Notes: a model not told the origin generated them from the sequence alone. A DNA stretch of 64,000 nt from Patescibacteria group bacterium (GCA_022703645.1 JAKLDG010000001.1:338814-402813); one strand, 5' to 3'; positions 5,307 through 57,534 are shown, counted from the first letter of the stretch. A program made the numbers and translations.

Positions 5307-6152
5307 TTATTTTAGTCTGCCGATATCTTCTACTGCCTTTTTGAATAAATCTACTAAGTTTGGATAATCTAGGTGATTCAAAACCTCTCCTTCTTCCACC
5401 CATTTAATTTCTTTAATATGAGCTTCCGGATTAATTATAGTATTTACCTGAGTAGTTCGTATAAGATAGAAGTGCACGCTTTTTTTGATAACCTCTTCGC
5501 CGCTTTTATCAGTAAATTTAATTTCGCCAACTTCACCAAGAATTTCAGCCTCAGTTATACCTGTTTCTTCTTGAATTTCTCTTACAGCTGCTTCTTGCCA
5601 AGTTTCTCCTTCTTCAACTTTACCTTTTGGAAAAGTCCATTTATCATAAGGGTTTTTGACAATTATAAAAAAGTTTTTCCCATTTTCTACGCGGTATATT
5701 ATTCCACCAGCGCTAATTATCAAGTTTTCTTCTTCATACTTACTACTTGCGCGGTAAATTGTTCCCAATACACCATTAATGAACTTACCACTGTTTTCTC
5801 CGCCAAATTCCTTACCAAGCTCCACAGCCTCATTAATAACCGCTTTTGGAGGCACTTCTGCATCATAAATCAACTCATAAATACCAATTCGCAATATAGA
5901 GCGGTCAATAGTGGCAATCTGTTCAAGAGGCCATTCGGGAGCAGTCTTTTTGATTAAGTCATTGATCTCTGATATTTTTTCCACCGTTCCTTTTATAATC
6001 TTACGGCAAAATTCCTCATCAACCTTAAAACCGGAATTTTCAATATTCCGTTTTAAAATTTCAGCAATATCTCTTTCTTCATCAAAATCCCACTCGTAAA
6101 GAGATTGTAAAACAACCATTCTTGACTGATGTCTAATAGATAGGTGAGACAT
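5307..6152 (-). CDS. nusB: NusB antitermination factor fused to a C-terminal Nudix hydrolase domain
   Basis: N-terminal ~135 aa is NusB-like (RMVVLQSLYEWDF...AVINEAVELGKEFG). The C-terminal half carries a perfect Nudix box, GKVEEGETWQEAAVREIQEETGI. Confidence 0.85.
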   Translation of the reverse strand: MSHLSIRHQSRMVVLQSLYEWDFDEERDIAEILKRNIENSGFKVDEEFCRKIIKGTVEKISEINDLIKKTAPEWPLEQIATIDRSILRIGIYELIYDAEVPPKAVINEAVELGKEFGGENSGKFINGVLGTIYRASSKYEEENLIISAGGIIYRVENGKNFFIIVKNPYDKWTFPKGKVEEGETWQEAAVREIQEETGITEAEILGEVGEIKFTDKSGEEVIKKSVHFYLIRTTQVNTIINPEAHIKEIKWVEEGEVLNHLDYPNLVDLFKKAVEDIGRLK

Positions 6153-6511: not shown

Positions 6512-6546
6512 AAAAAAACCGCCTTTTGGGGCGGTTGGGGTTTTTA
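6512..6546. terminator. Hairpin terminator (A run / T run on both sides)
   Basis: AAAAAAACCGCC-tttt-GGGGCGGTTGGGGTTTTT. Confidence 0.6.
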
Positions 6547-6578: not shown

Positions 6579-7145
6579 CTAAGCTCTTTTTGCAATATTC
6601 TTAGGGTTATTCATATCCCGACCCCACGTTGATGGATTTGATTCTATATAAGAATAAATTTCATCGTAAGATTTTTCATTGCGGATAATGTGTTCATAAT
6701 AGTTGCGTTGCCAGATACGATTTTCAAATGGTATTAATATATTTTGTTTAACCCCATCAATGCATTTTTTCGTTGTTAGTGATTTAAAACGTTGAATTAT
6801 TTGCGGCAATGACAGTTGTTTTTCTGTAGGGGCAAACCCCCGTGTTTGCCCGTTTTTAATTGGGCGGACACAGGGGTCCGCCCCTACGATACAGATAATC
6901 AAATGTATATGATTTGGCATAACAGAAAATATATCTACCTCGATATTTGAATAATACTTTGGGATTTCTTCTATCGTTTGGAAAATTATTATCCCAATAT
7001 CATTCAATCTCATCCCTCCATCAACAATTTCTCCGAACAAACACCCTCTATCTTGTGTACATATTGTAATAAAATAATCTCCGGGTTCGGAATAATCATA
7101 ACCTTTTATTCGTATTGACCTTCTGTTTTTGTTTTCTTTTTACAT
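6579..7145 (-). CDS. REP-associated tyrosine transposase (RAYT / IS200-like Y1 HUH), copy 1; codon 2 is TAA
   Basis: HUH motif MPNHIHLII and Tyr motif WQRNYYEHIIRNE. The N-terminus (RRSIRIKGYDYSEPGDYFITICT) is open upstream of the track start, but the reading is ATG TAA AAA where the paralog has ATG TCA AAA. Confidence 0.7.
6826..6887. repeat. GC-rich double-hairpin palindrome (GTAGGGGC...GCCCCTAC family) inside RAYT copy 1
   Basis: GTAGGGGCAAACCCCCGTGTTTGCCCGTTTTTAATTGGGCGGACACAGGGGTCCGCCCCTAC. Encodes the VGADPCVRPIKNGQTRGFAPT loop. Confidence 0.8.
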
Positions 7146-7160
7146 TAGAACAATTGAGAA

Positions 7161-20610: not shown

Positions 20611-21183
20611 TATAAATTCATGGTATTTTTCCTTAAAATATTCTTAGGATTATTGCTGTCTCGTTCCCACATTTGCGGATTGGATTCTATGTAACTATAA
20701 ATTTCATCGTACGATTTTTCATTGCGAATGATGTGTTCGTAATAGCCGCGTTGAAAAATGGGGTTGCCTGTTTTGTCTAAGATAATATTTATCTTTTTCG
20801 TTGATTGATATTTAAAATACCCAATTATTTGTCCTAATGTTGGTTTTTTATCCCGTAGGGGCGGGGTCTCCCCGCCCTGAATTAAATTGTTTTTGTTACC
20901 TACAAATATCGTTTTTCTCTTCTAATATCCGCAATATAAAATGAATATGATTTGGCATTATCTGAAAAATATCTAATTTTGTATTTGGGAAATGATTCGG
21001 AATTTCGTACCAACATTTTTCTGCAACATTTCCAATCTTATTTAATTCCATTTTCCCATCCACAATTTCCCCAAACAAACATTCTCTGTCTTTTGTGCAG
21101 ATCGTAACAAAATAATCTCCAGGTTCGGAATAATCATATTCTTTAATCCGTATCGATTTTCTATTTCGTTCGATTTTTGACAT
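20611..21183 (-). pseudogene. RAYT / IS200-like Y1 transposase, copy 2, split by a 1-nt frameshift
   Basis: The N-terminal ORF (to MPNHIHFILRILEEKNDICR*) and the C-terminal part (…LGQIIGYFK…RGYYEHIIRNEKSYDEIYSYIESNP…) are in different frames. Removing one A from the GAGAAAAAC run joins them. Confidence 0.75.
20854..20876. repeat. GC-rich hairpin (GTAGGGGC family, single arm) inside RAYT copy 2
   Basis: GTAGGGGCGGGGTCTCCCCGCCC. Confidence 0.65.
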
Positions 21184-21218
21184 TTTTATTTTGATTATAG
21201 CATATTTTCATTTCCCTC

Positions 21219-30548: not shown

Positions 30549-30573
30549 AGTTTTATTATTATATCATAAAAAC

Positions 30574-30682
30574 ATATCAAAATGCAAATATCAAAGTGTA
30601 AAATGACAAATTAAAATTAAAAATGTATAATATGCCAAAGGCATACCAAAATTTTACATTTTGATTTTTAAATTTTAAATTT
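30574..30682. repeat. Solo copy of the TGTAAAATG hairpin element with GC mini-hairpin core
   Basis: Left arm ...ATCAAAGTGTAAAATGACAAATTAAAATTAAAAATG, core TATGCC-AAA-GGCATACC, right arm AAAATTTTACATTTTGATTTTTAAATTTT. Confidence 0.7.
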
Positions 30683-30685
30683 ATC

Positions 30686-31450
30686 ATGAAGATTATTTCT
30701 TTCAATATTAACGGCATCAACTCGGCCATCAAATATGGTTTGCGGGATTTTATATCTCTAGAAAATGCCGATATCTACTTGTTCCAAGAAGTAAAAAATT
30801 CCTGGGATACTATTGATGACTCTTTGCGGAAAATTCCGGGTTACGAAACATATTTTTACCAAGCAGCAAAAAAAGGATATTCCGGACTTCTTGCATACGT
30901 GAAAACGAAGAACAAACCAATCGGATACAAGGAGGGTATAGGGTTTAGGGTTATAGACGAACAAGCGAGAGTGCAGACATTAGAATTCCAGGATTATTAT
31001 TTAGTTAATACCTATCTACCACATTCAGGAAGGGAACTTGAGAAACTTCCATTCAAACGTGAAGTAAACGAAAAATTCCTCGAATACTGTGAGTCTTTGA
31101 AAAAGAAAAAGCCACTTATAATTGCAGGGGATCTGAATGTTGCGCACAAAGATATTGATCTCGCCAATCCTCGCGCCAATATGGGAAACGCCGGATTTAC
31201 GACGGATGAGAGAGATTTTTTCGATAAATTCTTATCCCACGGATATATCGATACATTCCGCGAATTTGTAAAAGAAAATGGCCACTATACCTGGTGGAGC
31301 TGGCGGACAGGGGTACGCGAAAGAAATATCGGTTGGCGCATTGATTATTTTCTCGTCTCTGAAAATATTTCAAAACGAGTGAAAAAGAGTTGGATTCTGA
31401 AAGACATTCTCGGATCCGATCATTGCCCGATAGGATTAGAAATCCTGTAG
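30686..31450 (+). CDS. xth: Exodeoxyribonuclease III
   Basis: FNINGI, LFQEVK, GDLNVAH, SDHCPI. Confidence 0.9.
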   Translation: MKIISFNINGINSAIKYGLRDFISLENADIYLFQEVKNSWDTIDDSLRKIPGYETYFYQAAKKGYSGLLAYVKTKNKPIGYKEGIGFRVIDEQARVQTLEFQDYYLVNTYLPHSGRELEKLPFKREVNEKFLEYCESLKKKKPLIIAGDLNVAHKDIDLANPRANMGNAGFTTDERDFFDKFLSHGYIDTFREFVKENGHYTWWSWRTGVRERNIGWRIDYFLVSENISKRVKKSWILKDILGSDHCPIGLEIL

Positions 31451-31502
31451 GGGCGCAAAATTTTAAGCCCTTTTTTTGGGGCGTTATGTGTAGCATTCCT
31501 AC
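31447..31502. repeat. Degenerate GTAGGGGC-family element overlapping the xth stop codon
   Basis: GTAGGGGCGCAAAATTTTAAGCCCTTTTTTTGGGGCGTTATGTGTAGCATTCCTAC. The xth TAG stop lies inside GTAGGGG. Confidence 0.6.
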
Positions 31503-46500: not shown

Positions 46501-49500
46501 ATGATTGTGGTAAAGAAAAAGAAAATACCTTTAAGACCGTTTTTAATCCTCTTAGTGTTAATAGCTGGGTTTACTTTGAGTTTGGGTTTAAAACCAAATG
46601 AAAAAATAAAAGCGGCTTATTCTAATCCTTGCAAGACAGCTGGCACGTATGCTGGTTATGTAGTTGACGCGAATCTTAATGTTATTATTCCGGCTTACAA
46701 TAATGCTGTGTTTGGTGACACTTTCTATGATAGTACCAGCAAAGAAATTCATTGTAAAAGCATAACGATAGAAACGGGAGCGACTTTAGATATATCGCCA
46801 AAAACTACCGGTGCAAGTAAAACAGGCGGCACAAATTATAGAAGATTGGTTCTTGATGGTGATTTGAATATCGCAAGCGGTGGAACGCTAAATCTATATG
46901 GCGGCAATATATATAATACCGGCGGACTCAATGGCACTGGGATAACAAATGATGGAAAAGGATATGGTATGAATGTTATGGTTGGTGGAAATGTTTTGGT
47001 TGAATCCGGCGGATGGATATCAGCTGATGGCAAAGGGTATGAACATAGTAAGGGGCCGGGAGCAGGTGTGGCTGAACCCGGTTCACAAGGCGCTGCATAT
47101 GGTGGGGCTGGTCCGGATGGAACCAATTGTTATGGGAAATATTACGGTTCGGTTTCTGACCCGATAGAACTCGGCAGCGGCAGTAGTTTGGGAGTAGGAG
47201 GCGGAGTAGTTGATATAACTGCCGCGGGAACAATATTAATTCGCGGCGTAGGCAAAATTACGGCAAACAGCATTGGAGAGGGATCGGGCGGTTCAGTAAG
47301 ACTCAGCGCCAATACTATTAGTAGTACAATTGACGGCGTAAATATACCTTCTATTACAGCAAATGGCGGTAGTGGGTCTTATTACAGTGGCGGCGGCAGA
47401 ATCGCGCTTTTTTATAATTCATCAAATTTTGGCGGTGATATCAAAGCTATTGCTAACGCCTATGGAGGAGCTGGCACTGTATTCAAGAAAAAAAATATCG
47501 AGGCTTATGGTGATTTAATTATTACAAATAATTATCAGGATCATACCGATAACCCTCCGGACTATACTCCATATGCATATACAAAAATTGGCAAAACAAA
47601 AATCGATTCTGGCACATATAAGAATATCACAGTTAATAAAAGAGCAAACGCTATTATTGAATCTAGTAATATAGTAAACATCAATGGTGGTACTTTTGAA
47701 GTAAATAATTCCAAACTTGAAAATAAAGGCACTTTAGCTTCACAGACTTCCGCAGAAAAATTTCTGGCGAAAAATACCGCTCGGATACTTAATAGCGGTA
47801 CAGGGTTATTTAGCCTGTCCGCGAACTCAAACGCTATATTTGACGGCATAGACACTTATTTTGAGAACCAAAATAATATTATCCAAAATTTCGCCAATTT
47901 AACTATCTCTAACGGGGCTGTCATGAGCCATGCCGTCAATGATGCTACCGGTGTGACAAATTGTCTTAGGAATTCAATTGATAATCCAGTTGGCGGCGCG
48001 ATCCCTCCTTGCGAATATAAGGATTGGGGTGATGGCTATGGGAAACATTGGAATCAAAAATATACCTTAAGGATAAATGCCACAAGTGTTAATATTGATA
48101 ACAAAAGTTCGATAGATGTTTCACAAAAGGGATTTCAAACATTACCTGGAACATCAGGTTTTGGGCCGGGAGGGTCAAGTACGGCTTACTCAATCGGTGG
48201 TTACGCGGGAGGTTCTTATGGTGGCAGAGGTGGTAACGATAATACTGGGGGAGTAAGCGCAGATATTTATGGCGACTCGGATGGAGACCTGAATAATCCA
48301 AATGATCTGGGAAGCAGCGGTGATACCGGCTATACTGCCGGAGGATTAGTAAGAATAACAGTTTTGGGCGATATTGTTAATAATGGCTCTATATTATCAA
48401 ATTCAGGTACGGTTTCAAATGGTTTTGCCGGTGGGTCAGGAGGAGGCATAAGATTGGATGCAGACCGGATTCTCGGAGCTGGAAAAATTTCTGCCAACGG
48501 CATGCCCGGAACGATAGATCTTGCGAAAGGCGGCGGAGGAGGCGGAAGGATCGCGATCACATACAAAACCACAAAAGATTTTTATGGTCCAATTACCGCT
48601 TATGGAGGGTCTACTGATGGGGGACCCGGTACGATACTTTTTGCAAACAATAGCTCGGGAGCCTTAATTGATAAAGAACTTGTTATTTCTAATTCAGTTT
48701 TAAACGACAATCCAACCAAAATAGGAGGCGGTACGTATAAAAATATTACCGTAAAGAATACCTCGCCAACTCTTACTGACCTGACTTTAGCCGCAATCGT
48801 TTCTGGACAATCCGTTGTCATGCAAGATGGTGGGAATTTTGAAGTTAACCAAACTAATTTAACTAATAGCGGAACTATTTCTTTATTAGCCGGAACGTCA
48901 AATTTAGTTATAAAGGGAAAATCAAATTTTATTAATATCGGACCTACCGCCTCTCCTGGCATTAACGCGAATAGTACTTCTAAAGTTATTTTGGACAATG
49001 CCAATTTTGAAAATAAGAATAATATTGAACAGAATTTTGGCAATCTTTATATCCAGAATGGAGCAATATTAACGCATACTCAAAATGATTACTTAACGGT
49101 AAATTGCGTGAATACTTCCTGTACCAACCAAGACCTGGGTGATGGCAATGGAATGCATTACAATCAGGCTTATACATTAAGAATACATGCAAACAATGCT
49201 TTAATTGATAAATTTAGCGCTATTAATGTTGATGGCAAGGGCTATGACATGGGTAGAGGACCGGGTAATAATGGGTCTGCTAATTCTGCCGGAAGTTATG
49301 GCGGAGCTGCGTCAAGCGGCGACAGTACCTATGGTTTAGCGGATAACCCTAATGATTTGGGCAGTGGAGGTTATTCCGGTAGTTATGGTGATAATACCGG
49401 CGGCGGTTTAGTAAGAGTTAGGGCAGACGGTAATATAACAGTTGATGGCTTTATTTCTTCGGATACAACATCTGCCGGATCTTTTGACGGCGCTTCAGGA

Positions 49501-52500
49501 GGCGGTATAAAATTAATAGCAAATAGTATTCTTGGCTCCGGTTCTATTTCCGCTAGTTCTAATTTGACAAGCGGGAATATTGGCGGAGGTGGCAGAATAT
49601 CTCTCATAGCTACGCAAAAAAATTACAGCGGCACCGTCTCTGTGAATAGAGGTGGAACTGGAGCGAATTACGGTACTATTTATGATTCTCTGGCTATCCC
49701 TACGACTTATGGTCCGAGCGCAACACCATTAACTTATAATACAAAATTAAGTAATAATACTCCATATATAAAAGCCGATAGTTCAGCAACAACGATAGGT
49801 GTTGATGAAGGCAATGCAGTTAGCACTGGATATACTCCAGATTCTGATACCTCACTTCTTTTGAAAATGGATAACTGGGGAGATGGTCTTATTTATGATT
49901 CTTCCGCAAAATCAATACCTGTTATTAAATATGGCACAACTTCCTTCTCTGATACTGTTTTGAAAACTGGAACGCATTCACTATTATTTAATGGTTCCAC
50001 AGGTCGTTTAATACCTGATGGTACTTTTACATCAAATTTCCAGTATGGCACCGGAGCTTTTACTATTGATACTTGGATTTATCCAAAATCTGTTACGACA
50101 CTTCAAACAATTTATTCTCAAAAAAATAGCGCGACACCAACAACTAATGCATCATCATTACAAATTACTACTACCGGTCAGCTAAAATATACTGAAAATG
50201 GAGTTTCTATTATTTCTCCTGTCAGTACTATAAAACTAGGCAGTGATGTCGGATGGCAACATGTTGCTTTAGTTAGAGATAATTTAGGGGTTGAAAGATT
50301 ATTTTATAATGGTTCCGTAGTAGGAACACAGTCGTCTACATACTCCAAATTCAGCGATGTCGGTATCGGATGTTTATACCAGTCTACTAATACATTATTT
50401 TATAATGGCTATATGGATGAGTTCCGTATCAGTAAAGGAGTGGCGCGCTGGACCTCTGATTTTATTCCATTATCTGATGATGGCAACTGGGAAAAATTAA
50501 ATTTGAGAGCAACAAGGACTAACCCTAGCTCCGATACTAAGCTTTTGCTTCATCTCGATGGAACAAATGGATCAACTACCTATACTGACAGTTCTCCTTC
50601 AAACCATACAATATTGCGTTACAACACACCAACAATTTCCACTAACACTAGTAAATTTGGCGGCGCGTCAGGCGCTTTCCCGAGAGTAACCTCTCCATAC
50701 TTTGATTATATTTATGCTAATGATAATGTTAATGATTGGACTTTTGGCGCGGGTGATTTTACGATAGATTTTTGGGCTAACTTTTCAGATAATGTCAGGC
50801 AAGGTGTTCTTGCCATCGGCTCCGGCGCTTATGCTCCAATTGCTTTTGAAGTAGTAAGCAACAATCTTAACGTCTACATGACTAGTAATGGTAGCAGTTG
50901 GGATATCGCTAGCGGTCAACCAGTTGGCCAAACATTTGGTCCGGTAACACCAGGCGTTTGGGTACATTATGCGCTAACAAGGAATGGAAATACTTTTTAT
51001 CTTTTTGTTAATGGTACTACTGTAAACTCTTTTATGTCATCATTAAGTTTATGGAATAATAGCGGCGCTTTATATATAGGGCAATATTTTGGGTCTGTTA
51101 CAGCCTTTAAGGGCTATCTGGATGAATTTAGAATTATAAAGGGAAGAGCGGCTTGGAGTAATAATTTTACTCCTTCTACAACTCCCTATGAAATTTATGA
51201 TGACCCGTCTTTCAATGGAACGGTAGATATTGGCATAATAGATAATCTTGCAGGTGAATATGTTTTTTCCGGCTGCAACGGAGCGAACTGTACTTTTTCA
51301 GATTCAAAAGTTACAGCGAGATTCATAAATGGTATTGCTAATTTAGCAGTAAAAGTAAAAGACAAAAGAGATGGGCAGATAAAGCATCACGGTTTTTCAG
51401 GGCTAAAAATTAACTCCGTTTCAAATGTATCTTATATAAATAATAATCAAATAACCGGAGCTATCGAAATTCAAGATAGAACCCCAGAAAGATCAATACC
51501 ATCAGGTCCTGCCCCCGCAGGAAGTATTACTAAAGGAACTGCTGGCGCTACTATTTTTCCAATGGGAGCCGGTTTTAGTATTATAAATAATTCCAAAGGA
51601 ACCAGTCAGAGCCAACAAGATTTGGGTGGTAATTTAGTGGTTCGAGGTCCATTAGCATCCGCGCCATATCGTCTTTACCTTGATAAAAACATAATGTATA
51701 AAAGAGGTGATTATTTGAATAGCGACGGAACTATTAGCAGCGTGGCAACAGATTATCAAGTGGTTTGTGTTAATACAGCGGACTATACCCAAACAAAAAT
51801 AAGATGTAATGATGATCTGAGCACCAGCGCTATTCCATCAGGATTGCGAAATTATGGTATATATACATTTAATAAAACTTATAATTTCTATACCCAGAAC
51901 GAAACCTCTAATTATTCAGCGCCTTCAATATCTCAAGTTCTTATACCAGCTAGCAACCCAACTGTGCCTGTTATTTCTCCTTTAACAATAACTCCGACTA
52001 ACGGAAAATTAAATCTCAGCTGGAATAATCCAATTGATAATATCGGGCAAACAAAAACTTTGATCGTTAGAGGTATCGATAGTATTCCTACTTTCGTTCC
52101 AAGTGATGGGACGGATTATAATACCTGGTCAAATACTACTGTAACCGGAGAAGAGATGATCTATGACAGCACTAATGTCGGGGCGGGAAGTGAAGTAAAA
52201 AACTTTGACGATGCCAATGTATTTTTTGGAACCAGATACTGCTATACAATCTATGCTCAATATATTGGTTATATTTATTCGGTAGGGACTTCTGCTTGCA
52301 GCACTCTAACATCAATTATTGATCCGCCAGTCAACCCAACTATCACGATTCAAGGAATGATGATAAATATCGGATGGACAGCGCCACCTTCCGGCAATCC
52401 TGATAATTACCTGATTGTTAGAAAAAAAGGCACAACAGAACCAAACTGGAATCCAACCGGGGAAACTGCTGACTATAATATTGGTGATACGGTTGGCGAT

Positions 52501-55500
52501 GGTGTTGTTGTCTGTAAAGGATTTTCATGCACTGATCAAAATGTAAATGTAAATACTTTGCCAACCCAGTATTATTATAAAATTTATGCTCAGTATGGAA
52601 CCGCGGCTCCCTTCAGTTATTCTGTCGGTTCAACGGCAGTAAGCGGAAATCCTAACCCGGAAAACCCCCAAAAGTTTGATAATACCAATGAAGCAACACC
52701 AAGTGTAACACTGGACAATCTATCAGGACCTTACACGCCTCTTAATACATTTAAGATTGCAAATTATCTTGTCTGGAAAGCAACAACTCCGGCTGATTGC
52801 TCAGGGGCTTGGACGCCAACCAATGGAGCTGACTATTCAGGAGTGCAAGGAACTGGAAATATCATTTACAAAAACCCAGCAGCGCCAATATCATATATTG
52901 ATACTGCAGTTACAAATGGCGTTGGTTATTGTTACAAAATCTTTGTCCAATATAATGGTGAAACAATCAATACTACTGATCTAATGTATTCTTCTGGATT
53001 AAGTCTTTGGACTCAACCGCCAAATCATAATCCAACAATTAGCGTAAATAGCATCACCCAAACGATCGGCACGGATAATGTGGTAATTAACTTTAATGTA
53101 AATGATATTGATCCATCTGATAATGGCAAGCTTTCTGTTGGCTTTGCTGTTACAAATCCGGTTTCAGGATGCAGTATTAGCACTTTAACCGGACCAATAA
53201 CTAACCTCGGTGTCGGAGCTCATAGCGTTACTTGGACCGCCACTACCACTAATGGAACCGCGGGGGATTGTCCAGGCGTAGAAATGTTAGCCGGTTCTGC
53301 TCAACTGACAGCCACTGTTTCCGATTTTATCGGAGCCACCGGTACCGCTAGTCCAACTTTCTCTCTTGACACCAAAGCTCCCATTGCAAGTTCCAGCCTT
53401 ATTTTGTCCTCCAAAAACAGCAACTCCATTACTGTCGCTACCGGAGCTACCGGGGCTACTGATGGAAACATAAAAACTACCGCTGCCTATAAAGTCTATT
53501 ACAAGCAAGGATCAACGGTAGACGAAGTAAGCGGTACGCAAATACTACCAAATATTAATAGTTATGTTGCGGGACAGATATTTACTGCTTCCTCGCTAAT
53601 AACTAACCAGCAATATTCATTTAATATCTGGGCTTATGATAACTATGGACATAAAACTGCTGCTACGGTATTAAATGTCAGCACAAAAGGAAAATCTGTT
53701 ACAGGATTTACAGCTATAGTTCAAGGTATGAGAGTCCATCTGAGTTGGGACGCAATGCTGCCGGCGCCAGATAAGCATCTGGTTATTCGTAAGAAAGGAA
53801 CATCCGCGTCTACTTGGACGCCAACAGATGGTATTGGAATATATGCTGCTGGCAACACGGTAGATGCAGATACGATAGTAGTTTACCATGGCACAGGCGT
53901 CACTCTGGATGATGATGCAGTTGATGGAGCAGCCTATACCTATACTATCTTTGCCAACTATTCTGGAAATCTATATTCAGAGGGGGTTTCAGCTCCATCG
54001 ATAACACCGAATGCTCTGAACGCGTCGTTATCTGCTCCTGCCTATATACCAAATGGATCAAATTATGATATCGCACTCAACTGGGTAGCCCCCACACCAA
54101 GTTACAGTTTACAAAAATATGTAGTAGTTAGAGAAGTTGGGTCTCCTACTTGTTTAATCGAATGGACGCCAACCAAGGATAATAACTATAATGCATTAGA
54201 TCCAACCGGCTTTACTAATGAAGAAATTATCTATTCCGGAACCGGAACCACTACTACTGATAATATGGGAGGAACGGGAGTTTCTTCTGGTACAAATGTT
54301 TGCTATAAGATCTTTACTCAATATCTGGGAGATGATTTAGCGGTTCCAACAAACTTAGTTTATTCCGCTGGAATTGCCGCTACCTATGTACCGCCAAATC
54401 TGCCTCCAGAGATAGAGATTGGTTCAGTCACAGCGCTACAAACTACCGGAACTGAAAATATTGTTATAGCTTACCGTGTTAGAGATTCCGACTCAACCAA
54501 TTTGAATATTACATTTAGCATGATTGATCCGGGAGGCTCCACTTGCCAAATGAATTTAACTGATAATTTGGCGGGGATTGATGGCACTTACTATACTCAT
54601 ACCGCTACTTGGAATGCAGGGCTGGCAGGAGAGTGCCCGGGATTTGAAGTAACAAATGCTGTTATCCAAGTAACTGCCAGCGATAGTCTTAATTCTGTTT
54701 CGCAAAACTCCGCTCCATTTCTGCTTGATACTCTATCCCCAAGGCTTCCAACTCCAACTGTTTCTAACTTTAATTTAACTAATTTTTCATCAACAGGAGA
54801 TAAGATATTCTTCAATCTAGGATCTAATTCAACAACTGATACTAATGCGCTTAACTACAAGATATACTATGCTTCTGGGGGAAGTGTTGATGAAACAGGA
54901 ATACTCATAACAGGAGCTCCTATAGCATTTACTCCTGGAGCTGCATATTCGGTAACCGGATTAACACCGGGACAAAACTATACATTTAATATTTGGGCTT
55001 ATGATAAATATGGGCATAAAACTTCTGCGACTTCCGTAACATATTCAACTATTGTGCCTGCTCCGGCAAGCTTCTCTGTAACTCCGCATGGAATGAGATT
55101 ATCACTTACTTGGACGGCTCCTGTCGGTGGAACCCCAGACTATTATCTGATAGTTAGAAAAGCTAATTCAGATCCAATAATAGCTCCCGCTAATGGTTCT
55201 ACATACAACCTGGGGGATATTTTGAGCGGGGGAATGGTAGTCTACAATTCAACCGGGACAAGCCTTGACGATGATAATATTGATGACGGTCCTTACTATT
55301 ACCGAATTTATGCGCATTATTCAAATGGCAATTTCTCACCAGCCTTGGCTGGCAATGCGATTGCAGTGGCGGAAGGACCAAATACATTCAGCGCAACCTC
55401 AAGCCCAGCGCCAGTAGTCACATACATAGACACTCCACCAACAAATAATTTCAGTTTCGAGAACTATCTTATTTGGAAGAAAGAACAACCTAGCTGTACT

Positions 55501-57534
55501 ACTGATGGCAATCTGGTAGACGGTACGGTATATAATTATCTTGATTCAGTAGATGGGGGAACGATTATTTATAAATCAAACATTGATCCTAATGGTATGT
55601 CTGATATCTCAACTACAATAACTGGCCATACTTACTGCTACAAGATGTTCGTAGAGTATAATGGAGAAACTACTAATACTATCTATTCTAATGAAATGTA
55701 CTTTCAAATCACTCCTCCAAATAATCCTCCGACTCTTTCCGCTCTTTCTGTTGTTCAAACAATAGGTAGTGACGATGTTGTAATCGGATTTACTATTAAT
55801 GATCCGGATGGAATTGACGCTGGCAATCTCTCAGTCGCTTTATCAATTGTTAACCCTCCAGAAGGATGCAGTATCGGTACAATATCTGGTTCTTTGACTG
55901 GTTTATCAAATGGTAGTTATTCGGTTACTTGGACTGATGCCGATACTACTTGCCCTGGGCTTGAATTATCTAATGCTGGTTTAGAGTTTATTGCTCACGA
56001 CCTGATAGATTATTCATCTGCGCAGATAAGCAGTTTTTTACTCGACACTAAAGCGCCTACACTAATAGAGGGGCTAACATATGACCCACCAACCGCAGAT
56101 ACTATTGTAGTACGCCTAAGCACCAATACATTCTTCTTAAATCCTTTGAGTGTTGATCAAAATCTAAAAGGAGGAGGAAATAGCTTTAAGATTTACTACA
56201 AACAAGACAGTACCGTTTCAGAATCCGATACACAATTAGCTGCCTTTGATAATTATATCTTAGGGCAAGACTATACGGCCACACCATTAGGATCTAATTC
56301 ACAATATTCATTTAATATCTGGGCTTATGATAACTATGGACATAAGACAGCATATACTGATCCAGTCAAGCCAACTACCAGCGGTCTCAACGGACCACCA
56401 GTAGTACAATATGTTGCTCAACCAGTCCAAGCTGCTGGTACTGGTAATATCAATTTCAGTTTTGAAGTAAAAGATCCAGACTCGGATGGTTTAACTATCA
56501 CATTCTCACTAATTAATAATCCAGTCGGTTGCAGTATCTCTGGCGTTACTGGGTTTACCAATCCTGTATCCTCCACCAGTACTTTTGCAACAATTATCTC
56601 CAGCTGGAATGCGAAATTAACTTGTGATGGAGCGGATCAGTCTGACCTCAAGATCAGAATTAGCGCGGATGATGGAAACGGACATACAGCAACTATTGAT
56701 TCAGATCCATTTACTATCGATACGAAAAATCCTGTCTCTCCAGGAAACCTATCATTCCCAGCAGGAACTACTTTTGCGAATCAGGTTAGTGTAAAGACAA
56801 ATACTATTTCCGGTAGCGATACTAATGCCGATGATTGGCATGTATATAGGGTTGATGGAAATACTTTCCCAACGGATCCATTCTCTCCTGCTCTAACTCC
56901 AATTAAATTATATGATCCTTATATACCAGATGACGTATTTATTGATTCGGGGTTAACGCCAGATTCTGATTATACTTATAATATCTGCCTGCATGATACT
57001 TTTATGAACTTTACCTGCGCAACATCGCAAACTATTCATACACCAGCTTCAATATTAAGCTTTAATATTCTTGGTATTGCCAGTGGAATATCGGTTGGAG
57101 TTGAAACAACTAATATCACTACTACTTCTACAACAATTCCTTTTGGCAGTACTACAGTAGGGGATACAAAGGTTGGAGCGCTTGATCTACAAGGCACAAC
57201 AAATCTGGTTAATGGATATACTATTGATATCAGACAAGACCAAGATTTAACATCAGGAGGCAACACTATTCCTGCCCTTACCTCTACTAACGCTAGTCCG
57301 CAAGTATGGCCACCAACTCCAATTAGTTCTTTCTTTGGATATTCATCAATCAATCTTTCCAGATTTTCAAATGGCGTTAATTGGGCAGGATTAACTTTGT
57401 CTGACCTACCGATAGTAACACAGATAAACGGGACTCATGATGATGATGTTTTATTCAAATTATCCACCAAGAGTCCTCAACCAGCAGGAACTTATCAAAA
57501 CACCATTACTTTCTCAATAATGGCGAATCCGTAG
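46501..57534 (+). CDS. Giant (3677 aa) secreted/surface protein: three Gly-rich beta-helix-like blocks, two LamG-like domains, FN3-like repeats, four Cys-pair/Asp-rich modules, distinct C-terminal domain
   Basis: Single uninterrupted ORF with an N-terminal TM/signal. LamG-type motifs GTGAFTIDTWIYPKS...YMDEFRISKGVARW and GAGDFTIDFWANFSD...YLDEFRIIKGRAAW. The repeated motif FNIWAYD(N/K)YGHKT occurs three times. Confidence 0.85.
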   Translation: MIVVKKKKIPLRPFLILLVLIAGFTLSLGLKPNEKIKAAYSNPCKTAGTYAGYVVDANLNVIIPAYNNAVFGDTFYDSTSKEIHCKSITIETGATLDISPKTTGASKTGGTNYRRLVLDGDLNIASGGTLNLYGGNIYNTGGLNGTGITNDGKGYGMNVMVGGNVLVESGGWISADGKGYEHSKGPGAGVAEPGSQGAAYGGAGPDGTNCYGKYYGSVSDPIELGSGSSLGVGGGVVDITAAGTILIRGVGKITANSIGEGSGGSVRLSANTISSTIDGVNIPSITANGGSGSYYSGGGRIALFYNSSNFGGDIKAIANAYGGAGTVFKKKNIEAYGDLIITNNYQDHTDNPPDYTPYAYTKIGKTKIDSGTYKNITVNKRANAIIESSNIVNINGGTFEVNNSKLENKGTLASQTSAEKFLAKNTARILNSGTGLFSLSANSNAIFDGIDTYFENQNNIIQNFANLTISNGAVMSHAVNDATGVTNCLRNSIDNPVGGAIPPCEYKDWGDGYGKHWNQKYTLRINATSVNIDNKSSIDVSQKGFQTLPGTSGFGPGGSSTAYSIGGYAGGSYGGRGGNDNTGGVSADIYGDSDGDLNNPNDLGSSGDTGYTAGGLVRITVLGDIVNNGSILSNSGTVSNGFAGGSGGGIRLDADRILGAGKISANGMPGTIDLAKGGGGGGRIAITYKTTKDFYGPITAYGGSTDGGPGTILFANNSSGALIDKELVISNSVLNDNPTKIGGGTYKNITVKNTSPTLTDLTLAAIVSGQSVVMQDGGNFEVNQTNLTNSGTISLLAGTSNLVIKGKSNFINIGPTASPGINANSTSKVILDNANFENKNNIEQNFGNLYIQNGAILTHTQNDYLTVNCVNTSCTNQDLGDGNGMHYNQAYTLRIHANNALIDKFSAINVDGKGYDMGRGPGNNGSANSAGSYGGAASSGDSTYGLADNPNDLGSGGYSGSYGDNTGGGLVRVRADGNITVDGFISSDTTSAGSFDGASGGGIKLIANSILGSGSISASSNLTSGNIGGGGRISLIATQKNYSGTVSVNRGGTGANYGTIYDSLAIPTTYGPSATPLTYNTKLSNNTPYIKADSSATTIGVDEGNAVSTGYTPDSDTSLLLKMDNWGDGLIYDSSAKSIPVIKYGTTSFSDTVLKTGTHSLLFNGSTGRLIPDGTFTSNFQYGTGAFTIDTWIYPKSVTTLQTIYSQKNSATPTTNASSLQITTTGQLKYTENGVSIISPVSTIKLGSDVGWQHVALVRDNLGVERLFYNGSVVGTQSSTYSKFSDVGIGCLYQSTNTLFYNGYMDEFRISKGVARWTSDFIPLSDDGNWEKLNLRATRTNPSSDTKLLLHLDGTNGSTTYTDSSPSNHTILRYNTPTISTNTSKFGGASGAFPRVTSPYFDYIYANDNVNDWTFGAGDFTIDFWANFSDNVRQGVLAIGSGAYAPIAFEVVSNNLNVYMTSNGSSWDIASGQPVGQTFGPVTPGVWVHYALTRNGNTFYLFVNGTTVNSFMSSLSLWNNSGALYIGQYFGSVTAFKGYLDEFRIIKGRAAWSNNFTPSTTPYEIYDDPSFNGTVDIGIIDNLAGEYVFSGCNGANCTFSDSKVTARFINGIANLAVKVKDKRDGQIKHHGFSGLKINSVSNVSYINNNQITGAIEIQDRTPERSIPSGPAPAGSITKGTAGATIFPMGAGFSIINNSKGTSQSQQDLGGNLVVRGPLASAPYRLYLDKNIMYKRGDYLNSDGTISSVATDYQVVCVNTADYTQTKIRCNDDLSTSAIPSGLRNYGIYTFNKTYNFYTQNETSNYSAPSISQVLIPASNPTVPVISPLTITPTNGKLNLSWNNPIDNIGQTKTLIVRGIDSIPTFVPSDGTDYNTWSNTTVTGEEMIYDSTNVGAGSEVKNFDDANVFFGTRYCYTIYAQYIGYIYSVGTSACSTLTSIIDPPVNPTITIQGMMINIGWTAPPSGNPDNYLIVRKKGTTEPNWNPTGETADYNIGDTVGDGVVVCKGFSCTDQNVNVNTLPTQYYYKIYAQYGTAAPFSYSVGSTAVSGNPNPENPQKFDNTNEATPSVTLDNLSGPYTPLNTFKIANYLVWKATTPADCSGAWTPTNGADYSGVQGTGNIIYKNPAAPISYIDTAVTNGVGYCYKIFVQYNGETINTTDLMYSSGLSLWTQPPNHNPTISVNSITQTIGTDNVVINFNVNDIDPSDNGKLSVGFAVTNPVSGCSISTLTGPITNLGVGAHSVTWTATTTNGTAGDCPGVEMLAGSAQLTATVSDFIGATGTASPTFSLDTKAPIASSSLILSSKNSNSITVATGATGATDGNIKTTAAYKVYYKQGSTVDEVSGTQILPNINSYVAGQIFTASSLITNQQYSFNIWAYDNYGHKTAATVLNVSTKGKSVTGFTAIVQGMRVHLSWDAMLPAPDKHLVIRKKGTSASTWTPTDGIGIYAAGNTVDADTIVVYHGTGVTLDDDAVDGAAYTYTIFANYSGNLYSEGVSAPSITPNALNASLSAPAYIPNGSNYDIALNWVAPTPSYSLQKYVVVREVGSPTCLIEWTPTKDNNYNALDPTGFTNEEIIYSGTGTTTTDNMGGTGVSSGTNVCYKIFTQYLGDDLAVPTNLVYSAGIAATYVPPNLPPEIEIGSVTALQTTGTENIVIAYRVRDSDSTNLNITFSMIDPGGSTCQMNLTDNLAGIDGTYYTHTATWNAGLAGECPGFEVTNAVIQVTASDSLNSVSQNSAPFLLDTLSPRLPTPTVSNFNLTNFSSTGDKIFFNLGSNSTTDTNALNYKIYYASGGSVDETGILITGAPIAFTPGAAYSVTGLTPGQNYTFNIWAYDKYGHKTSATSVTYSTIVPAPASFSVTPHGMRLSLTWTAPVGGTPDYYLIVRKANSDPIIAPANGSTYNLGDILSGGMVVYNSTGTSLDDDNIDDGPYYYRIYAHYSNGNFSPALAGNAIAVAEGPNTFSATSSPAPVVTYIDTPPTNNFSFENYLIWKKEQPSCTTDGNLVDGTVYNYLDSVDGGTIIYKSNIDPNGMSDISTTITGHTYCYKMFVEYNGETTNTIYSNEMYFQITPPNNPPTLSALSVVQTIGSDDVVIGFTINDPDGIDAGNLSVALSIVNPPEGCSIGTISGSLTGLSNGSYSVTWTDADTTCPGLELSNAGLEFIAHDLIDYSSAQISSFLLDTKAPTLIEGLTYDPPTADTIVVRLSTNTFFLNPLSVDQNLKGGGNSFKIYYKQDSTVSESDTQLAAFDNYILGQDYTATPLGSNSQYSFNIWAYDNYGHKTAYTDPVKPTTSGLNGPPVVQYVAQPVQAAGTGNINFSFEVKDPDSDGLTITFSLINNPVGCSISGVTGFTNPVSSTSTFATIISSWNAKLTCDGADQSDLKIRISADDGNGHTATIDSDPFTIDTKNPVSPGNLSFPAGTTFANQVSVKTNTISGSDTNADDWHVYRVDGNTFPTDPFSPALTPIKLYDPYIPDDVFIDSGLTPDSDYTYNICLHDTFMNFTCATSQTIHTPASILSFNILGIASGISVGVETTNITTTSTTIPFGSTTVGDTKVGALDLQGTTNLVNGYTIDIRQDQDLTSGGNTIPALTSTNASPQVWPPTPISSFFGYSSINLSRFSNGVNWAGLTLSDLPIVTQINGTHDDDVLFKLSTKSPQPAGTYQNTITFSIMANP

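Follow-up and report, generated by a model that had tools for sequence, protein, structure and literature searches.

The TnpA_REP transposase of Escherichia coli requires a GTAG tetranucleotide together with a hairpin and cuts single-stranded DNA between C and T, including within the CC/TAC of the inverted partner (the slash marks the cut); the strand transfer that it carries out can build tandem copies (PMC3333891). In the structure 4ER8, Y115 has been named the catalytic tyrosine (PMC3479197), and residues W94, Q95, E100, H101 and R104 are the readers of the GTAG guide (Quentin 2018, BMC Genomics 19:475, section "Recognition of REP guide sequence"). Quentin, Siguier, Chandler and Fichant (2018, BMC Genomics 19:475, PMC6006769) also described, in a survey of finished genomes, REP sequences inserted within the tnpA_REP gene itself as a unique feature of their subclass 2.4. 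[quoted passage not shown] In a separate classification, Group 4 of the RAYTs is described as rare in Proteobacteria except Haemophilus and common in Cyanobacteria, Chlorobia and Caldilineae (Bertels, Gallie, Rainey 2017, PMC5581495); a term search of that paper found no mention of nested REPs. Finally, a further paper places intragenic palindromes notably in the genes of RNA- and DNA-handling enzymes (Di Nocera 2013, PMC3733652; Ogata 2000 as cited there).

Here, we analyze a RAYT gene in a window of 64,000 nucleotides (the whole stretch of DNA that was analyzed) from a Patescibacteria (CPR) genome of ca. 0.87 Mb (867 kb), with a GC content of 37 to 38% and at least four such genes. The best explanation of our findings, and one that we regard as likely, is that this gene belongs to the RAYT/TnpA_REP lineage and carries its cognate REP/REPIN in frame inside itself.

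Results

A RAYT-type transposase gene with a REPIN in its reading frame

The features of the gene (copy 1) and its immediate surroundings are as follows.

6517-6536, unstranded: terminator-like bidirectional hairpin just downstream of copy 1; not a GTAG REP
6579-7145, minus strand: gene for a RAYT/TnpA_REP-type Y1 (HUH) transposase, copy 1; 188 codons plus stop, with a nonsense codon 2 as its sole lesion
6648-6650, minus strand: predicted catalytic tyrosine Y166 in YSYIESNP, aligned to Y115 of 4ER8
6675-6713, minus strand: guide-recognition motif WQRNYYEHIIRNE; by HMM alignment to 4ER8, the counterpart of W94/Q95/E100/H101/R104 of E. coli TnpA_REP
6826-6887, unstranded: nested REPIN of 62 nt; two inverted GTAG-headed REP hairpins with a 10-nt spacer, read in frame as VGADPCVRPIKNGQTRGFAPT
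6826-6851, plus strand: REP arm 1, GTAGGGGCAAACCCCCGTGTTTGCCC; GTTTTT follows on the plus strand (terminator-like, antisense to the gene)
6862-6887, minus strand: REP arm 2, GTAGGGGCGGACCCCTGTGTCCGCCC; on the sense strand of the gene, encoding VGADPCVRP
6903-6911, minus strand: HUH motif H79-I80-H81, closing the beta strand before the nested unit
7140-7142, minus strand: TAA stop at codon 2 of copy 1 (ATG at 7143-7145); TCA in the paralogue, Gln or Ser in close homologues

Read from 7145 to 6579, copy 1 begins ATG TAA AAA GAA… and then stays open for 186 codons (KENKNRRSIRIKGYDYSEPGDYFITICT…MPNHIHLII…WQRNYYEHIIRNE…YSYIESNP…); the translation of 6579 to 7145 is thus M, a stop, KENKNRRSIRIKGYDYS…MPNHIHLII…WQRNYYEHIIRNE… and the final stop. 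The protein matches the Pfam family Y1_Tnp (PF01797) with 28 bits (cutoff, 23; E value, 2.6e-6), and a homologue search returned 7976 homologues, many of which carry the name RayT. An AF2 model made from 34 input sequences (pLDDT, 85; pTM, 0.80) found its top Foldseek matches in the TnpA proteins of ISDra2, IS608 and IS200 and in TnpA_REP (4ER8); 30 chains were retrieved at E values of 2e-7 to 8e-5, every one of them an IS200/IS605 TnpA or a TnpA_REP. By Pfam, fold and homologues, copy 1 is the gene of a RAYT-type Y1 transposase, and the original prediction, which had recognized a RAYT-type ORF with the HUH motif MPNHIHLII, was correct in this respect. It had also taken WQRNYYEH for the Tyr motif, and this assignment has to be revised. 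In the HMM alignment with 4ER8, Y166 and N170 of copy 1 fall on Y115 and N119 (the catalytic tyrosine and a metal ligand), and W145, Q146, E151, H152 and R155 (WQRNYYEHIIR) fall, in this order, on the five E. coli guide readers named above. WQRNYYEH is therefore the guide-recognition motif, and the predicted catalytic Y166 lies 17 residues downstream of it. H79 and H81, like Y166 and N170, are invariant in our alignment (A2).

The 62-nt palindromic unit lies right after the HUH motif of an AT-rich gene, exactly where it had first been noticed, and has a GC content of 61%, versus 31% for the remainder of the gene. Each of its 26-nt REPs is laid out as GTAG, GGGCxxAC, a 6-nt loop and GTxxGCCC. 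Compared as inverted copies, the two arms are identical at 21 of 26 positions, and four of the five differences are compensatory (AA..TT versus GG..CC). Folded as single-stranded DNA, the unit is stable on both strands (-21.5 and -23.9 kcal/mol; z scores of -5.2 and -5.7). The pattern GTAGGGGC-N(35-60)-GCCCCTAC has two matches in the window and none in 100 shuffles; GTAGGGGC by itself occurs four times in the window. In the AF2 model, the residues encoded by the unit (87 to 107) make up the loop between the HUH strand (E77-84) and a helix (H111-131), and no other long loop of the model has such low confidence. So modeled, the unit would sit in a permissive surface loop that leads from the HUH strand to helix alpha-C.

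The nested REP across the family

VG[ATVP] is present in the loop of 94 of the 98 close homologues that have both landmarks, and nearly all of about 100 show a VGA…APT loop. In length, the loop ranges from 17 to 111 aa among the 98, and exact direct repeats of at least 5 aa are found within it in 22 of them, versus 2 of 98 for the rest of the protein. The loop is hypervariable in length, often with tandem partial-REP duplications.

At the DNA level, 80 genome loci were taken from Chloroflexota, Bacteroidota, Deltaproteobacteria, Cyanobacteria, Pasteurellaceae, Legionella, Patescibacteria and others, of which the 69 with an open HUH-to-WQRNYY interval formed the base of the hairpin count. In 55 of the 69, this interval contains one or more GT[AG]G-headed hairpins, and the density of such hairpins is 5.8 per kb within it versus 0.30 per kb in the flanks. 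According to the original prediction, homologues that encode the loop without any palindromic DNA would have spoken against a nested REP; we looked for this, and what we found was a loop encoded by palindromic hairpins in those 55 loci, over many phyla.

The first unit after HUH, chosen by the position of its head only, almost always begins with GTAGGGGC, and its stem varies by genome. A joint alignment of all first units was given up (MAFFT left them ungapped and mixed three hairpin lengths); they were split by foot register, and the 26-nt class was tested. In this class (25 distinct units), 92% of cells pair, versus 29 to 58% in slid controls; double-sided changes occur in five of the eight pairs (24 cells), and the covariation score was reached by 0 of 500 shuffles, a test of which only the five inner pairs are the unbiased part because the three foot pairs had served for length sorting. 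Copies of a gene's own internal unit (at most 2 mismatches in 24 nt) are found in its flanks at 21 of 63 loci, versus 2.5% of cross-locus pairs. The nested sequence is an element at the level of DNA whose hairpin is preserved, across phyla, by compensatory changes, and these comparisons show it to be of the same kind as the local REPs.

These observations bear on the possibility that the loop is conserved as a peptide, with a protein-level role for VGA…GQxxGxAPT and the palindromic DNA as a codon by-product. V87, G88, A89 and P106 are indeed nearly invariant in the protein alignment, and both feet keep a constant reading frame; however, the invariant residues are precisely those that come from the GTAGGGGC and GCCCCTAC feet, whereas the inner stems change nonsynonymously (VGADPCVRP, VGAGPRACP, VGATLAVA, VGAKNFSP) with pairing kept. 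The low pLDDT of the loop and its great range of lengths are also hard to square with a conserved peptide, as is the recurrence of the same units in extragenic DNA and also, with other frames and orientations, within unrelated genes. Together, the family-wide loop, the covariation and the own-flank copies argue against a purely peptide-level explanation, which we consider very unlikely.

A recent accident, in which a REP of the genome inserted into the genome's own RAYT gene and was tolerated as a lineage-specific oddity, is harder still to credit. REPs do enter coding regions here (rlmD and mnmA, described below), and the homologue P0081 has a REP-coded segment at a second site of the gene. 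Against this, nearly all homologues, from many phyla, share both the position and the frame of the unit, all four paralogues of the genome have one, and the arrangement is a described hallmark of subclass 2.4. The original prediction had seen here a RAYT and REP pairing that was exceptional in having the REP inside the gene; the pairing stands, but the internal position is a published hallmark of the whole family and no exception.

Other units in the window and in the genome

Three further places in the window had been thought to hold the same type of unit. Listed with the second RAYT gene, they are as follows.

14563-14617, unstranded: dispersed REPIN of 55 nt, well formed; in frame within an rlmD/rumA-like methyltransferase gene (13604-14923, minus strand)
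20620-21183, minus strand: RAYT copy 2, of another sub-lineage (loop …GGETPPLR…, helix YFKYQSTK), with a frameshift and an in-frame stop
20855-20903, unstranded: nested unit of copy 2; one good arm, GTAGGGGCGGGGTCTCCCCGCCC, the other AT-rich and ending in CCTAC
31447-31502, unstranded: degenerate unit at the 3' end of an xth-like gene, with the TAG of its GTAG head serving as the stop codon of that gene

Only the first of the three is a dispersed unit in good order: the second, predicted at 20854, turned out to be the nested unit of copy 2 itself, at the homologous position, and the third, at 31447, has degenerated, its predicted fold being no more stable than that of shuffles (z = -0.55). The expectation that the unit pattern would recur elsewhere in the genome was nonetheless borne out, and further GTAGGGGC units lie at L001:5533, L001:10298 and L005:10277 in the ca. 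105 kb of the 867-kb genome that were read.

Two further RAYT paralogues, P0120 and P0047, were taken with 10-kb flanks from the same or a nearly identical genome (different sample). A unit is nested in both of them, so that all four paralogues of the genome have one; that of P0047 is a single 29-nt "double foot" hairpin, GTAGGGGCGGGTTTGAAACCCGCCCCTAC, and the GTAG-GGGC…GCCC feet are present in all units. Both 24-nt arms of the REPIN at 14563 are identical to those of the unit nested in P0120, and only the spacer differs. No flanking GT[AG]G-headed hairpins were found beside copy 1, P0120 or P0047; the sole REP in physical linkage with each of these three RAYT genes is its nested unit. Immediately upstream of P0047 are a phage-type integrase gene and a HaeIII-like restriction-modification pair (L005:6926-9981), and this region may be a mobile island. 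In the same or a nearly identical genome, mnmA (tRNA 2-thiouridylase; L001 gene 4417-5706, plus strand) contains an in-frame REPIN of 58 nt (L001:5533-5590), which falls in a region ca. 32 aa longer than in the solved MnmA structures.

It might be argued that the hairpins serve mainly to regulate the gene itself, as a structure in RNA or DNA (an antisense terminator, say, or a site of autoregulatory binding that holds expression down), rather than as a mobilized substrate. Arm 1 with its GTTTTT scores as terminator-like on the plus strand, the units at 14563 and 31447 likewise have a T-run after the first hairpin on that strand, and an enzyme that binds the single-stranded DNA of its own gene could limit itself. 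On the other hand, the T-run lies in the variable spacer and is missing from the units of most homologues, no Rfam family matches anywhere in the window, and regulation would leave the identical units elsewhere and the tandem amplifications unexplained. A regulatory role would in any case be compatible with a mobilized substrate; as the main function of the hairpins, we think it improbable.

The rlmD site and dispersed copies

At the site that is filled in the rlmD gene of the window, the closest orthologues differ: P0125 is empty, P0124 has a single REP (GTAGGGGCGATTCATGAATCGCCC) and P0126, from another CPR genome, has a REPIN of the copy 1 type; the rlmD gene of P0126 also bears, at a different site, a REPIN nearly identical to the unit at 14563. 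This loop of the rlmD/rumA-like gene (14563-14617; L090, L091:6307, L092:607, L092:1198) is a REP hot spot. From the empty and differently filled orthologues, REP units are gained and lost in coding loops, and the same REPIN types are shared among related CPR genomes. The alignment of rlmD orthologues also contains REP-like peptides (VGAHCHAPT, VGNSHGCS and CRGLIHQ) at further sites. PDB homologues were tried as a source of exact insertion boundaries in rlmD, but the alignment of the linker was ambiguous and close orthologues were more useful. We claim no target sequence for this site because the empty one (CTG GGG TCG CTA G) could be a decayed remnant.

No dispersed copies of copy 1's own arms were found in the ca. 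105 kb of this or a closely related genome. A search of metagenome contigs with GTAGGGGCRRACCCCYGTGTYYGCCC, which represents the arm class of copy 1, matched at least 120 contigs, and the arm class is therefore widespread; the source genome is not among the 80 named contigs of the matches listed. Among the matches listed, none of at least 140 copies of the GTAGGGGCRRACCCCYGTGTYYGCCC class lies in a recognizable RAYT gene (positive controls worked), and dispersed copies of this arm class thus far outnumber nested ones among these matches. A CT dinucleotide 5' of GTAG was considered as a signature of target or cleavage and rejected; extragenic copies are pyrimidine biased at this position (TT, 27%), with no preference for CT.

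Damage to the two copies in the window

The stop at codon 2 of copy 1 (ATG TAA AAA) is real: ATG TAA is also present in a contig from another JGI sample, which is 100% identical over 4462 nt, and the NCBI MAG carries a truncated call of 153 aa for copy 1. Recoding of TAA was ruled out because TAA is the dominant stop of the long ORFs in the window (21 of 33). Reinitiation at an ATA codon after the AGAAGG stretch was considered and not adopted. The longest ORF left has a TTG start at 7040 and lacks the first beta strand, which makes it most likely that copy 1 is inactive; the loss was probably recent, given that a single nonsense change is all that is visible. The original prediction had described copy 1 as probably inactivated or in need of reinitiation, with a paralog that reads TCA. 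Both the stop and the TCA are as it said, but that paralog does not serve as an intact reference, being itself frameshifted.

Copy 2 loses its reading frame, and has an in-frame stop, in the stretch from the HUH strand to the nested unit; its loop type recurs in loci L056 and L080. The two copies are 76 to 82% identical at both ends (6594-6710 and 6994-7146 versus 20637-20753 and 21032-21184), and their central parts (the loop and the helix alpha-C region, with a length difference of 15 codons) are of different sub-lineages. A mosaic origin, or recombination between paralogues, is suggested by this pattern. The RAYT/REP system is decaying in the window, with a nonsense codon in copy 1, a frameshift in copy 2 and two of four units without one or both hairpins; both present copies would be dead.

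Other features of the window

Two NUDIX fusions lie within 5 kb of each other. The leucyl-tRNA synthetase (7161-10070, minus strand) has an internal NUDIX domain, and the NusB protein (5307-6152, minus strand) has one at its C terminus (Pfam; the translations show the NUDIX box). Intergenic repeats rich in A/T, AAATTAAAAATTAAAAATCAAAATGTAAAATG and its complement, occur in direct and inverted orientation at ca. 24525, 24918, 26870, 26930, 28730, 30570-30680 and 36450, with arms of up to 69 nt. CCAATA-rich inverted repeats at 10104-10182 and 61221-61298, 51 kb apart, have arms of 48 nt with 81% and of 28 nt with 86% complementarity. A single ORF (46501-57534, plus strand) encodes 3677 aa, which is very large for a genome of ca. 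0.87 Mb.

Discussion

How a REPIN nested in its own transposase gene might be used is best considered in the light of the E. coli enzyme, whose chemistry fits both the GTAG…CTAC architecture of the units and the tandem partial-REP repeats of the loops. By analogy, the enzyme would bind GTAG plus hairpin on single-stranded DNA and cleave between C and T, including within the CC/TAC of the inverted partner, so that a GTAG…CTAC doublet would supply both a recognition site and a cleavage site. The nested unit would then act as a cis substrate; during replication, it would be copied into other sites or exchanged with them, and because it rides inside the gene, enzyme and substrate would be inherited and transferred jointly. 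Precise excision of the 62-nt unit would frameshift the gene, and a simple cut-out model is therefore costly for the donor strand.

One further possibility, which we raise tentatively and would not ourselves expect to hold, is that the nested REPIN is no tolerated insertion but the seed copy of a self-contained 0.55-kb "inside-out IS", the CPR progeny of which survive mainly in frame in a few permissive loops of housekeeping enzymes. As the only cis substrate would lie inside the ORF, any transfer of the gene would carry a founder REPIN along. Such an account would draw on CPR genomes being gene dense, with almost no intergenic space, and would treat the rlmD site, with its three REP types, as one hot spot. 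If it is true that the nested copy founds each REPIN population, this would explain the matching of REPINs and RAYTs through horizontal transfer.

Turning to known systems, the dispersed copies resemble the intragenic REPs of Di Nocera (2013, PMC3733652) and the Rickettsia palindromic elements in that they are short in-frame palindromes in housekeeping genes (here, rlmD and mnmA). The likeness extends to the dispersed copies and not to the transposase gene, and the Rickettsia elements are longer (100 to 150 bp) and have no known RAYT. With the IS200/IS605 elements (IS608, ISDra2), the window gene shares the transposase fold and the reliance on subterminal hairpins of single-stranded DNA with a tetranucleotide guide. 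In those elements, however, the hairpins flank the gene and the whole gene moves, whereas here the hairpin pair is nested; at most a unit of 30 to 60 nt would therefore move, and the gene would stay.

E. coli TnpA_REP (4ER8; Ton-Hoang 2012, PMC3333891; Messing 2012, PMC3479197) is similar to the window protein in its Y1 HUH fold, in the catalytic Tyr and the Asn on helix alpha-D and in the W-Q…E-H…R residues, and the REPs of both have a 5' GTAG, occur as inverted pairs and include CC/TAC in the inverted partner. The two proteins are ca. 22% identical, and their hairpins are unrelated in sequence. BIMEs flank the E. coli gene, inside which there is no REP, and the C-terminal extension of the E. 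coli protein (E161) closes the active site, whereas the window protein has no such extension. As regards RAYT groups, the loci studied here include Histophilus, Actinobacillus, cyanobacteria and many Chloroflexota, which fits the host range of Group 4; judged by host range only, this lineage is probably Group 4 of Bertels 2017.

The closest counterpart is subclass 2.4. Its members and the window gene have the HuH/Y1 core without a C-terminal extension domain and a variable in-frame REP insertion between beta-3 (HuH) and alpha-C; both have units with GT[AG]G heads, among them "double foot" ones that end in C[TC]AC, and both are patchily distributed over many phyla, Cyanobacteria and Bacteroidetes included. 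The units of this genome are of the REP type given for the subclass (three G-C foot pairs, or "double foot" GT[AG]G…C[TC]AC). The differences are that the host in the window is one of the Patescibacteria (CPR), that three RAYT genes of this genome have no flanking REPs and that both window copies are damaged. The REPtron arrangement (a gene flanked by REPs) is thus absent from copy 1, P0120 and P0047, but many homologues elsewhere have it. Every sequence feature given for subclass 2.4 (Quentin 2018) is present, flanking REPs being the one RAYT feature missing; from these features and from homologues in Cyanobacteria and Bacteroidota, we infer that the window gene belongs to subclass 2.4.

A transposase gene with its own target repeat inside the ORF has been a published hallmark of one RAYT subclass since 2018, and the window gene therefore opens no new category. 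To what is known of that subclass it adds a clean example from a minimal CPR genome, in which the gene has no linked REP other than the nested one; direct evidence, from the identical arms of the P0120 unit and of that at 14563, that a single element can occur both nested and dispersed in frame; and quantitative support, from covariation and from own-flank versus cross-locus matching, for maintenance of the loop at the DNA level across phyla.
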